Assembly: GCF_013122565.1 (NCBI RefSeq)
Contig: NZ_CP053258.1
Source: Escherichia coli
GTDB taxonomy: Bacteria; Pseudomonadota; Gammaproteobacteria; Enterobacterales; Enterobacteriaceae
Direction: 5' to 3' (one strand)
Length of the DNA: 64,000 nucleotides
Every line of letters starts with the position of its first letter. Position 1 is the first letter of the stretch. Positions 12,088 through 32,331 of the stretch are shown here, in pieces. Both the position numbers and the translations under genes were made by a program. The notes under the pieces are model-generated. The model did not search any database and was not told the DNA's origin. It saw nothing but the letters and a program-made list of their open reading frames with translations.

Positions 12088-12754
12088 TCCTTCCTCAATC
12101 TTGAGTAACCCCGTCGTTGCAGGGTTACTCAATTCGTCCTGATTATACGCACTGTCATGGTGCAATTGCTTCAAATTAAAACTCTGGTCTGACTTCAAAT
12201 AATTATCATATTATTTATCTGCGTAACGGGATACCAGAAAAAATATTTACCCTATTAATTTATTAGGATGTTTACATCGGATTTTTGATTAAGCGTGGTA
12301 TTATTTATTAGCGAAACGTTTCTCTCTTGATTTTTTTACTCATTCATCAATTTTTCTTATTTTAAATTTACAATACCTTTGGGATTGACTTCTCTTTGGG
12401 GTAATTGATAGCCGTTAACTGCCTGTTTTATGAGAAAAAGTAATATAACTTTTTATTCATTGCATAGCAGAAAATGTGATATTGCACGCACTATGTAATA
12501 ACTTCTCCCACTGGCCTGGAACAACTGAACTTATTGAACTATGTTAGAAAATACGCCAGTTTAAGTATCTGTCTGAACTGGCAAGGTTAAGCACAATGAT
12601 ATATCGGCGCGTATTCCGTTGCATAAGTGTGCAAAAAAAGTGGAAGACGTATCGAGATTTGTGCGTCTGATCGAGACATGTTTAAAAATGGCTTGCCATA
12701 ATTAACGTTGTATGTGATAACAGATTTCGGGTTAAACGAGGTACAGTTCTGTTT

Positions 12755-12898
12755 ATGTGTGGCATTTTCAGTAAAGAAGTCCTGAGTAAACACGTTGACG
12801 TTGAATACCGCTTCTCTGCCGAGCCTTATATTGGTGCCTCATGCAGTAATGTGTCAGTTTTATCTATGTTATGCCTGCGGGCGAAGAAAACAATCTAA
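12755..12898 (+). CDS. yobF: Small protein YobF, 47 aa, co-transcribed with cspC
   Basis: ATG at 12755 translates to [47 protein letters not shown]; stop 12 nt before the cspC start. Below the ORF-track size cutoff. Confidence 0.85.
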
Positions 12899-12910
12899 GG
12901 AATTTTTCAA

Positions 12911-13120
12911 ATGGCAAAGATTAAAGGTCAGGTTAAGTGGTTCAACGAGTCTAAAGGTTTTGGCTTCATTACTCCGGCTGATGGCAGCAAAGACGTGTTC
13001 GTACACTTCTCTGCTATCCAGGGTAATGGCTTCAAAACTCTGGCTGAAGGTCAGAACGTTGAGTTCGAAATTCAGGACGGCCAGAAAGGTCCGGCAGCTG
13101 TTAACGTAACAGCTATCTGA
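12911..13120 (+). CDS. cspC: Cold-shock-family protein CspC
   Basis: 69-aa [40 protein letters not shown] with RNP1/RNP2 cold-shock motifs. Confidence 0.95.
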
Positions 13121-13166
13121 TCGAATCCACTGATCTGAAGTGTGAATACGCTTCAATCTCGCTATA

Positions 13167-13193
13167 AAGCCTCGTCGAATGCGAGGCTTTTTA
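13167..13193 (+). terminator. Rho-independent terminator downstream of cspC
   Basis: Stem gcctcg / cgaggc with 7-nt loop followed by a T5 run. Confidence 0.65.
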
Positions 13194-13285
13194 CTTTGCT
13201 TTATCTTCGCTCCAGTCGTTCGGATATTTGCCCGCCGCGTGATTCGCGTTACACTTGCGGCCTTTAGTATCCTGCCGGAGTTGTC

Positions 13286-14095
13286 ATGTCGTTTTCCTGT
13301 CCACTTTGCCATCAGCCTCTTTCGCGTGAAAAAAACAGCTATATCTGTCCCCAGCGACATCAGTTTGATATGGCGAAAGAAGGGTATGTCAATCTGCTGC
13401 CCGTTCAGCATAAACGGTCTCGTGATCCGGGCGACAGCGCGGAAATGATGCAAGCACGCCGCGCATTCTTAGATGCCGGACATTATCAGCCGCTGCGTGA
13501 TGCAATTGTCGCCCAACTGCGGGAACGGCTTGATGATAAGGCCACGGCGGTGCTGGATATTGGCTGTGGTGAAGGGTATTACACACACGCATTTGCCGAT
13601 GCGTTGCCCGAAATCACCACCTTTGGCCTGGATGTCTCGAAGGTAGCGATAAAAGCGGCGGCGAAACGCTATCCGCAGGTCACTTTTTGTGTCGCTTCCA
13701 GCCACCGTTTGCCGTTTTCCGATACCAGTATGGACGCCATAATACGTATTTACGCGCCGTGTAAAGCAGAAGAATTAGCGCGAGTAGTGAAGCCCGGCGG
13801 TTGGGTCATTACTGCCACGCCGGGACCGCGACATTTGATGGAGCTGAAGGGGCTGATTTACAATGAAGTACATCTTCATGCACCTCATGCAGAACAACTG
13901 GAAGGTTTTACATTACAGCAGAGTGATGAGTTGTGTTATCCGATGCGTCTTCGCGGTGATGAAGCCGTCGCATTATTGCAGATGACGCCGTTTGCCTGGC
14001 GTGCGAAGCCAGAAGTCTGGCAAACACTGGCAGCAAAAGAAGTGTTCGACTGCCAGACGGACTTTAATATTCACCTCTGGCAGCGTTCTTATTAA
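13286..14095 (+). CDS. rlmA: 23S rRNA m1G745 methyltransferase RlmA
   Basis: 269-aa ORF starting [28 protein letters not shown], with N-terminal Cys4 zinc motif and SAM-MTase motif [10 protein letters not shown]. Confidence 0.9.
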
Positions 14096-14658
14096 CCGTG
14101 GAAGTGCGTCCAGAGGATCTGGACGCCGATGCCGATCAGCACCAGCCCGCCGAGAATTTCCGCTTTTTTCCCAATAATTGAGCCGATAAAGCGACCAACC
14201 ATCATCCCTAATGTCGACATAATCAAGGTTGCACAACCAATGGCCAATGCGGTCGCGATAATGTTGACCTGAAGGAAAGCAAGACCAACACCCACAGCCA
14301 TGGCATCCAGGCTGGTGGCAATCGCGGTGGTTACCAGTAGCCAGAAACCGTGTCGACGGCGCGGTTCTTCATCTTCATCATCTGCGCCACGAAACCCCTC
14401 AATAATCATTCGCCCGCCGAGAAATATCAGCAGAACAAACGCAATCCAGTGGTTCCATTCAAGGACAAATCGGCTGGCTAACATGCCCATTCCCCAGCCG
14501 ATCAGCGGCGTCAGGGTTTCGACGGCACCAAAAATAAGGCCGGTTCGCAATGCTTCAGAAAATTTCGGTTTATGGAGGGTGGCACCTTTACCGATTGATG
14601 CAGCAAATGCATCCATCGACATACCAAACGCAAGAAGAACAGTAGCAGTGATATTCAT
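14092..14658 (-). CDS. mntP: Manganese efflux pump MntP
   Basis: ORF 14092-14901; start trimmed to [25 protein letters not shown] (188 aa). The upstream 243 nt of the ORF call is leader, not coding. Confidence 0.9.
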
Positions 14659-14779
14659 GACAACGTCCTGACCGGGGTATCCATAAAACACATCATCGCC
14701 CCCAGCAAACATGCATACATGAACAACAAGCCGCGATGGGTTTTCGCGTTCATGCAGGCATAGCGATTGATGTGCATAT

Positions 14780-14890
14780 GGTCTCGCCTGACTGAAAGTC
14801 TTCAGTCCGTACGTGCCACGTTTTGCAACGAGTATGTTGACACGTACATTTCCGGAATCTGGAAATTGGCTACTCCCCAAATGAGGGCGC
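14780..14890 (-). ncRNA. yybP-ykoY manganese riboswitch aptamer in the mntP 5' leader
   Basis: Minus-strand RNA contains GGGGAGUAGC (complement of 14869-14878) and GUCAACAUAC (complement of 14832-14841), both characteristic of the yybP-ykoY class, upstream of mntP. Confidence 0.6.
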
Positions 14891-15087
14891 AACCTTAACA
14901 TATTTTGAGAATATAAAACAACTGTTGGAATATATTATTTTATTGCTTTGTTGATAACGATTTTCATTTAGATTTATATATCAATGAAACGTTAAAATAA
15001 ATAACAAATAAGGGAAGAGGTAATATAGCCTAAGCTATGTCTGATTATTAAAAACACACTAAACATAGCTTTGGGTAAATTCATAAG

Positions 15088-30600: not shown

Positions 30601-32286
30601 TTGAAGAAGGTTTGGCTTAACCGTTATCCCGCGGACGTTCCGACGGAGATCAACCCTGACCGTTATCAATCTCTGGTAGATATGTTTGAGCAGTCGGTCG
30701 CGCGCTACGCCGATCAGCCTGCGTTTGTGAATATGGGGGAGGTGATGACCTTCCGCAAGCTGGAAGAACGCAGTCGCGCGTTTGCCGCTTATTTGCAACA
30801 AGGGTTGGGGCTGAAGAAAGGCGATCGCGTTGCGTTGATGATGCCTAACTTATTGCAATATCCGGTGGCGCTGTTTGGCATTTTGCGTGCCGGGATGATC
30901 GTCGTAAACGTTAACCCGTTATATACCCCGCGAGAGCTTGAGCATCAGCTTAACGATAGCGGCGCATCGGCGATTGTTATCGTGTCTAACTTTGCTCACA
31001 CACTGGAAAAAGTGGTTGATAAAACCGCCGTTCAGCACGTAATTCTGACCCGTATGGGCGATCAGCTATCTACGGCAAAAGGCACGGTAGTCAATTTCGT
31101 TGTTAAATACATCAAGCGTCTGGTGCCGAAATACCATCTGCCAGATGCCATTTCATTTCGTAGCGCCCTGCATAACGGCTACCGGATGCAGTACGTCAAA
31201 CCCGAACTGGTGCCGGAAGATTTAGCCTTCCTGCAATACACCGGCGGCACCACAGGTGTGGCTAAAGGCGCGATGCTGACTCACCGCAATATGCTGGCGA
31301 ACCTGGAACAGGTCAACGCCACCTATGGGCCGTTGCTGCATCCAGGTAAAGAACTGGTAGTAACGGCGCTGCCGCTGTATCACATTTTTGCCCTGACCAT
31401 TAACTGCCTGCTGTTTATCGAACTGGGTGGGCAGAACCTGCTTATCACTAACCCGCGTGATATTCCAGGGTTGGTAAAAGAGTTAGCGAAATATCCGTTT
31501 ACCGCTATCACTGGCGTTAACACCTTGTTCAATGCGTTGCTGAACAATAAAGAGTTCCAGCAGCTGGATTTCTCCAGTCTGCATCTTTCCGCAGGCGGAG
31601 GGATGCCTGTTCAGCAAGTGGTGGCAGAACGTTGGGTGAAACTGACCGGACAGTATCTGCTGGAAGGCTATGGCCTGACCGAGTGTGCGCCGCTGGTCAG
31701 CGTTAACCCGTATGATATTGATTATCATAGTGGCAGCATCGGTTTGCCGGTGCCGTCGACGGAAGCCAAACTGGTGGATGATGATGATAATGAAGTACCA
31801 CCGGGTCAACCGGGTGAGCTTTGTGTCAAAGGACCGCAGGTGATGCTGGGTTACTGGCAGCGTCCGGATGCTACAGATGAGATCATCAAAAATGGCTGGT
31901 TACACACCGGCGACATCGCGGTAATGGATGAAGAAGGATTCCTGCGCATTGTCGATCGTAAAAAAGATATGATTCTGGTTTCCGGTTTTAACGTCTATCC
32001 TAACGAGATTGAAGATGTCGTCATGCAGCATCCTGGCGTACAAGAAGTCGCGGCTGTTGGCGTACCTTCCGGCTCCAGTGGTGAAGCGGTAAAAATCTTT
32101 GTAGTGAAAAAAGATCCATCGCTTACCGAAGAGTCACTGGTGACTTTTTGCCGCCGTCAGCTCACGGGCTACAAAGTACCGAAGCTGGTGGAGTTTCGTG
32201 ATGAGTTACCGAAATCTAACGTCGGAAAAATTTTGCGACGAGAATTACGTGACGAAGCGCGCGGCAAAGTGGACAATAAAGCCTGA
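30601..32286 (+). CDS. fadD: Long-chain-fatty-acid-CoA ligase FadD
   Basis: ORF 30535-32286; start trimmed to TTG at 30601 ([23 protein letters not shown]), 561 aa, AMP-binding motifs. Confidence 0.9.
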
Positions 32287-32305
32287 GCGTTAAGTCAGTC
32301 GTCAG

Positions 32306-32331
32306 ACGCCGGTTAATCCGGCGTTTTTTTT
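32306..32331 (+). terminator. Rho-independent terminator downstream of fadD
   Basis: Stem acgccgg / ccggcgt with ttaat loop followed by a T8 run. Confidence 0.7.

Follow-up and report, generated by a model that had tools for sequence, protein, structure and literature searches.

The leader of mntP, on the minus strand of a window of 64,000 nt of Escherichia coli DNA (the whole stretch that was analysed), raises the question whether an ORF lying between a metal-sensing RNA and its gene takes part in the control of that gene. The sequence-only reading of this stretch described a Mn riboswitch followed by a 32-codon uORF whose stop overlaps the mntP start, and suggested translational coupling or leader-peptide control from this geometry. 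Our analysis makes it very probable that the element is a known riboswitch leader carrying an incidental, allele-specific ORF that arises from a conserved hairpin. The leader ORF most probably serves neither regulation nor coding.

It is evident from direct reading and from the ORF list that ATG 14658-14656 opens mntP on the minus strand (protein MNITATVLL...). The leader query (261 nt) showed 100% identity to E. coli O157:H7 genomes, and this O157:H7-type allele differs from the K-12 MG1655 leader in a few SNPs and in an additional C of the apical loop (AAAACCC). We aligned 78 distinct Enterobacteriaceae mntP leaders, and GGTCAGGAC or GGTCTGGAC is kept 5' of the mntP ATG in most of them. The coordinates of the leader features are collected in Table 1. 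With regard to the surroundings, rlmA (plus strand, 13286-14095) is convergent with mntP, and the 3' ends of the two genes share four bases (14092-14095). The cspA thermoregulator model (RF01766) matches strongly, with 139.6 bits, over the cspC region downstream of rlmA (12735-13195, plus strand), and the sroD small RNA model (RF00370) matches at 32245-32330 on the plus strand with 115.2 bits.

Table 1. Features of the mntP gene and its leader (positions are those of the window)
Feature	Position	Strand	Description or basis
mntP CDS	14092..14658	-	188 aa Mn2+ exporter; RefSeq annotation mntP
Leader ORF	14655..14777	-	40 codons from ATG 14777, 32 from ATG 14753; judged incidental
mntP Shine-Dalgarno (SD) region, CAGGAC	14665..14670	-	conserved motif; anti-SD duplex -4.4 kcal/mol
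CCCCGG directly 5' of the SD	14672..14677	-	predicted partner, in the Mn-free state, of the 5' UUGGGG of L1/P1.1 (14880-14875)
Switch helix 3' arm, GGCGAUGAUGUGUUUUAUGG	14681..14700	-	pairing counts, RNAalifold
Hypervariable apical part of the platform hairpin	14701..14761	-	alignments, MFE fold
Switch (anti-P1.1) helix 5' arm, CCAUAUGCACAUCAAUCGCU	14762..14781	-	pairs with 14700-14681 in 78/78 leaders
Mn2+ (yybP-ykoY) aptamer of the mntP leader	14775..14884	-	RF00080 match, compensatory changes

The riboswitch part of the earlier reading held well. Both sequences that it gave as the yybP-ykoY signature, GGGGAGUAGC in L1 (14878-14869) and GUCAACAUAC in L3 (14841-14832), are read directly on the minus strand, and the metal-binding loop sequences (L1, GGGGAGUAG; L3, GUCAACAUAC) vary little or not at all among the 78 orthologous leaders. 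A scan of 601 nt with RF00080, the check that this reading proposed, gave a match at 14790-14886 (minus strand) with E=2e-9, but its 40.1 bits did not reach the gathering score of 45. The K-12 MG1655 leader scored 44.9 bits in a local scan (E=5e-11) against the same gathering score. Since both scores fall under 45, scans that apply the gathering threshold alone miss the mntP riboswitch; in our Rfam scans, RF00080 was not listed at that threshold and was seen on a rerun with an E-value threshold. The two scores, obtained with Rfam 15, belong to 14790-14886 (minus strand) of the window and to 5468-5558 of L089.

The aptamer is placed in the 5' leader directly upstream of mntP, a gene of Mn homeostasis, and extends from the inferred transcript start (~14884), placed by the A11/A48 numbering of PMC12153347, to the 3' strand of P1.1 (CCAUAUG, 14781-14775). 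In the 78 Enterobacteriaceae leaders its helices are preserved, several pairs with compensatory changes, and RNAalifold on these leaders showed covariation of the stems, including 34 and 26 double changes at the pairs 107/140 and 108/139. From the RF00080 match, the identity to the O157:H7 mntP leader and the published K-12 locus, the element is the already known and experimentally characterised E. coli mntP Mn2+ riboswitch (PMC11647493, PMC12153347).

Much of its mechanism has been published for K-12. In K-12 derivatives, Mn turns on the translation of mntP, and without Mn Rho terminates in the untranslated leader and the early coding region; moreover, deletion of the riboswitch led to overexpression of MntP (PMC11647493). 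Co-transcriptional probing showed that the mntP expression platform is a single helix, which folds from a transcript length of ~175 nt, and that at ~205 nt in the absence of Mn the L1/P1.1 structure is disrupted via alternative pairing of the P1.1 strand (PMC12153347). The ribosome-binding site of mntP showed no clear Mn-dependent change in this probing and was called "dynamic" (PMC12153347). It is the K-12 allele for which Mn2+-dependent expression has been shown (PMC11647493, PMC12153347).

To these reports our alignment adds a conserved switch helix, which fits the published switching point, with the P1.1 strand captured at ~205 nt. The partner segments CCAUAUGCACAUCAAUCGC (14781-14762) and GCGAUGAUGUGUUUUAUGG (14700-14681) pair in all of the 78 leaders with dG of -18 to -31 kcal/mol, and the basal helix thus formed is 18-19 bp long and competes with the aptamer helix P1.1. 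Its 5' arm includes the P1.1 3' strand together with the first ATG of the leader ORF (14777), and the ATGs at -38, -35 and -26 sit in its 3' arm. Compensatory variants were found in this helix: AUCGC/GCGAU in Escherichia versus ACUGC/GCAGU in most genera, and CCAUC/GAUGG with CACGU/GCGUG or ACGUG in the leaders of Cedecea and Buttiauxella. The pairing of UUGGGG with CCCCGG is likewise kept in 78/78 leaders, the only variation being U-G to U-A and G-C to G-U, and RNAalifold finds both this pairing and the switch helix. When the 17 pairs of these helices were evaluated on the alignment, 99.7% of the cells were paired and five pairs had double-sided changes; their covariation score was reached by no shuffle, and only 28-49% were paired after the 3' partners had been slid by 1-3 columns. 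The unconstrained MFE fold gave the same architecture including UUGGGG:CCCCGG, with the C-run and ATG 14753 placed towards the tip of the long hairpin.

The apical part of this hairpin is hypervariable. It carries ATG 14753-14751, a 13-nt segment that is missing from other Escherichia species and the C-run at 14740-14738, and most of the stretch, the middle section in E. coli, is missing in about half of the 78 leaders. The 3' end of the apical part (14710-14701, GUUUGCUGGG) is conserved family-wide. The E. coli-specific apical insert also contains a terminator-like mini-hairpin, CGCGAAAACCCAUCGCG followed by GCUUGUUGUU (14732-14748, minus strand), which includes the polymorphic C-run. A search for such hairpins gave this one match (14748-14732) against 0.4 +/- 0.6 expected, which is not significant.

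These structures suggest how the leader may work. The platform would be one long hairpin after the aptamer, of which the basal 18-19 bp takes the P1.1 3' strand. Without Mn, the platform helix would extend into this strand and the freed 5' UUGGGG would be able to pair with the CCCCGG beside the SD; mntP would then be poorly translated, and Rho would terminate in the leader or in the early coding region. Mn would stabilise P1.1 and the L1-L3 dock, strand invasion would be reduced, mntP would be translated and Rho termination would be partly avoided. In this scheme the Mn response, the Rho termination and the switching point at ~205 nt are taken from the literature, and the exact mode of SD occlusion is inferred. 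Constrained partition functions gave no clear difference in SD accessibility between the enforced states (0.18 unpaired with P1.1 versus 0.24 with the switch helix), so that we claim no SD-masking helix beyond UUGGGG:CCCCGG. The similar accessibility of the enforced folds agrees with the "dynamic" ribosome-binding site of the probing study (PMC12153347). In L067, L075, L076 and L080 (Cedecea and Buttiauxella), CCCCAACUGAGGC stands in place of CCCCGGUCAGGAC about 20 nt upstream of mntP. With this swap the SD becomes GAGG, and U-A replaces U-G in the UUGGGG:CCCCGG pairing. These four leaders represent a distinct platform variant, which would be useful for testing the model of SD occlusion.

We then come to the ORF. 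Direct reading and the ORF list agree with the earlier description of 32 codons from ATG 14753, of the peptide and of the ATGA overlap. As for its extent, these 32 codons stand, but the frame is open further 5', and its first ATG (14777) gives 40 codons. The ORF is in the +1 frame relative to mntP, and its TGA (14657-14655) overlaps the mntP ATG to make ATGA at 14658-14655. The lack of an SD, also pointed out in the sequence-only reading, was borne out: the best anti-SD duplex at ATG 14753 has +1.9 kcal/mol, compared with -4.4 kcal/mol at the mntP start. ATG 14777 has a weak SD-like match (-4.4 kcal/mol), which lies inside the conserved paired aptamer strand CAGGCGAGACC. No diagnostic codon run or arrest motif was apparent in the leader ORF.

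The length of the ORF was compared with 5000 dinucleotide-preserving shuffles of the 225-nt leader. An ATG-initiated ORF of at least 32 codons appeared in 51% of the shuffles and one of at least 40 codons in 32%, and in 13% the frame closing at the fixed ATGA held an ORF of 32 codons or more. The leader has 10 ATGs, and the shuffles have 6.9 +/- 1.8 (P=0.08). The mntP frame itself has no stop over 81 codons upstream of the annotated start, giving a 269-aa ORF from ATG 14901 (14092-14901, minus strand), an ATG that precedes the inferred transcript start; a 1-nt indel shifts the stop-free stretch into another frame in K-12. This stop-free stretch looks like the result of chance or of a paucity of stop codons in the leader. 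The in-frame ATG at -54 was ruled out as the start of a longer MntP, because indels move that frame between species.

In the databases, PGAP annotates a 40-aa hypothetical protein (WP_000547919.1) beside mntP in O157:H7 genomes, and the K-12 leader carries no annotated ORF. One database entry names a member of the WP_000547919.1 cluster 'MFS transporter' or 'putative membrane protein'. Our literature search found no description of a uORF in the mntP leader, and the detailed papers on mntP mention no leader ORF; the only paper that matched the search was a review on Rho, which names mntP as a riboswitch case. The ribosome-profiling supplement of the preprint by Stringer et al. has no mntP entry and no coordinates for the K-12 locus, and the leader peptide is not among the entries listed in the supplements of Hücker et al. 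for O157:H7 Sakai.

Whether the ORF reaches mntP is set by the C-run 14740-14738, which is CCC here (AAAACCC) and CC in K-12 (AAAACC). A 35-mer that spans AAAACCC was found in 924 of the 5426 complete E. coli genomes (~17%), including O157:H7, O55:H7 and some others. With AAAACC, which is present in K-12 MG1655, the B strain and other sampled genomes, the same ATGs open an ORF of 19 codons (27 from the upstream ATG), which is closed by a UGA 37 nt short of the mntP start and does not touch mntP. Thus the K-12 derivatives, in which Mn regulation was demonstrated, are without the long ORF. In representatives of four other Escherichia species (labelled Escherichia sp. or E. whittamii in three cases and E. 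coli in one), the 13-nt segment is missing, and in E. albertii about 14 nt are missing at the same site of the leader. Neither length is a multiple of three, and what is gone is the segment just downstream of ATG 14753.

Across the Enterobacteriaceae leaders, the frame is not kept either. No ATG-initiated ORF exists in the ATGA frame in 35 of the 78 leaders, the ATGA itself is absent from three, and an ORF of at least 32 codons in this frame occurs in only three, two of which start inside the aptamer. The one widely conserved ATG, that of GAUGUGU, is absent in 18 leaders; where it occurs, the spacing between it and the mntP ATG leaves a remainder of 2 (21 leaders), 1 (20) or 0 (19) on division by three. 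As judged from these sequences, such an even spread is what would be expected without any reading-frame constraint. The overlap exists because codon 2 of MntP is a conserved Asn (AAY): residue 2 is Asn in 75/78 leaders, each with ATGA, and the His-2 leaders (n=3; one labelled Salmonella enterica, two Citrobacter sp.) have ATGC. The ATGA is shared by the 75 leaders irrespective of an upstream ORF, 35 of them having no ATG-initiated ORF in its frame. The proposal of translational coupling or leader-peptide control is not borne out by an ORF of chance length, without SD, confined to one allele and with a frame that is not kept in the 78 leaders.

The ORF is rather, in all probability, an accidental frame across the hairpin, and its middle crosses the fast-evolving apical region. 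Several of its ATGs are CAUG or CAU:AUG elements in or beside the helix arms, and the frame-shifting indels fall in the apical loop region, where the length is free to vary. Both the position of these ATGs and that of the indels follow from the conserved switch helix, and the 3' third of the ORF owes its nucleotide-level conservation to the RNA structure.

Some observations nevertheless speak against our preferred reading. PGAP annotates the 40-aa ORF as a hypothetical protein, the hydrophobic core of the peptide resembles a membrane segment, and GGGGG precedes the ATGs at -38/-35, with a predicted anti-SD duplex of -8 kcal/mol that is stronger than the SD of mntP. Moreover, the link from aptamer to SD was not seen in the published probing or in our constrained folds, which leaves room for an additional mechanism. 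One such mechanism would be translation of the 32/40-codon uORF in O157:H7-type strains, which would end on AUGA and lead to termination-reinitiation or to shielding from Rho, changing the basal level or the Mn response in comparison with K-12. In its favour are the actual overlap of stop and start, the intact ORF of 924 genomes with its PGAP annotation, and the action of Rho on the leader when it is untranslated (PMC11647493); that neither literature nor folding pins down the link from aptamer to SD would also suit this idea. However, ATG 14753 has no SD, and ATG 14777 has its weak match inside the conserved aptamer strand and lies within P1.1 or the switch helix in both states. The length is within chance, and the arrangement is absent from other genera and from K-12, in which the regulation works, so that we regard this translation as improbable. 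In particular, it is very doubtful that the single-C polymorphism has given O157:H7-type E. coli a uORF-coupled variant of the riboswitch, with a 40-codon ORF ending on the mntP start. If the 40-codon ORF were translated at a low level, basal MntP, the Mn-induction ratio or the Rho sensitivity should differ from K-12. The allele would then be a modest natural example of a riboswitch leader that has gained uORF coupling.

A shorter ORF of 12-13 codons, from the ATGs at -38/-35 (14696/14693 to 14655), could instead be the functional one, with GGGGG as its SD, and bring ribosomes to the start of mntP. It occurs throughout E. coli, K-12 included, the duplex predicted with the anti-SD has -7.8 to -8.4 kcal/mol and is spaced 5 nt from the -35 ATG, and 17/78 leaders have the ATG in the frame of the ATGA stop. 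Across the genera, however, this ATG is spread nearly evenly over the three frames, being in the mntP frame in 19 leaders and missing in 18, and in 23 leaders its frame stays open for over 60 nt beyond the mntP start. The ATG and GGGGG are both accounted for by RNA pairing, and the ATG is paired in the Mn-free fold; we consider a function of this ORF highly unlikely. It is hardly credible that the 40-aa product is a real small membrane protein, hydrophobic and functional in its own right, for instance as a modulator of MntP in the manner of MntS. Its hydrophobic core fits one transmembrane segment and databases label it a hypothetical or 'putative membrane' protein, but such hydrophobicity is expected from U-rich codons. 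Furthermore, the product belongs to only one allele class of E. coli, is frame-shifted in most E. coli and has no SD, and the 15 listed members of its cluster, all labelled E. coli, carry scattered non-conservative variants (R->C/S, Y->S, G->V, A->P). Both the translated long uORF and the membrane protein fail because the Mn response is established in K-12, which is without the long ORF. All three alternatives are in difficulty because the frame is not conserved and the relevant bases are explained by pairing.

Under the preferred reading, a known riboswitch leader with an incidental ORF, WP_000547919.1 is most likely a gene called in error within a riboswitch leader. This locus may be instructive for annotation in two respects. 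A validated riboswitch that scores just under the Rfam gathering score is overlooked by threshold-only scans. In addition, ATG-rich, ORF-like stretches of leaders can derive from CAUG-containing helices, for which the conservation of the frame in relatives is a quick test. The literature already covers this riboswitch, its response to Mn and how it interacts with Rho, and the ORF adds nothing demonstrable to this.

Finally, the leader can be compared with known systems. It shares with the K-12 mntP riboswitch the locus, the gene, the aptamer motifs and helices, the platform hairpin and the Mn-free competitor of P1.1, and it differs by the extra C, of which the sole demonstrable consequence is that an incidental frame is extended to the mntP start. 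Control by leader peptides is represented by mgtL upstream of mgtA, a proline-rich leader ORF in the Mg2+ riboswitch of Salmonella, and likewise by the trpL and pheL attenuators. To our knowledge, regulatory leader ORFs of this kind are conserved in frame among relatives, are translated and contain diagnostic codons. The mntP leader resembles mgtL-type leaders in having a short ORF in a structured, ligand-sensing 5' leader and in Rho termination, whereas it differs from mgtL, trpL and pheL in that its ORF has no conserved frame, no SD and no apparent diagnostic codons. With AUGA-coupled gene pairs it shares the four-base overlap, but here the overlap is due to Asn-2 (AAY) and is found in 75/78 leaders whatever ORF lies upstream. 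A further system in the same organism is E. coli alx (PRE), which has an aptamer of the same family and also controls the translation of a Mn exporter (PMC12153347). On the other hand, alx has an intrinsic-terminator stem and depends on pH, in contrast to the single-helix platform and Rho-dependent termination of mntP (PMC11647493, PMC12153347).
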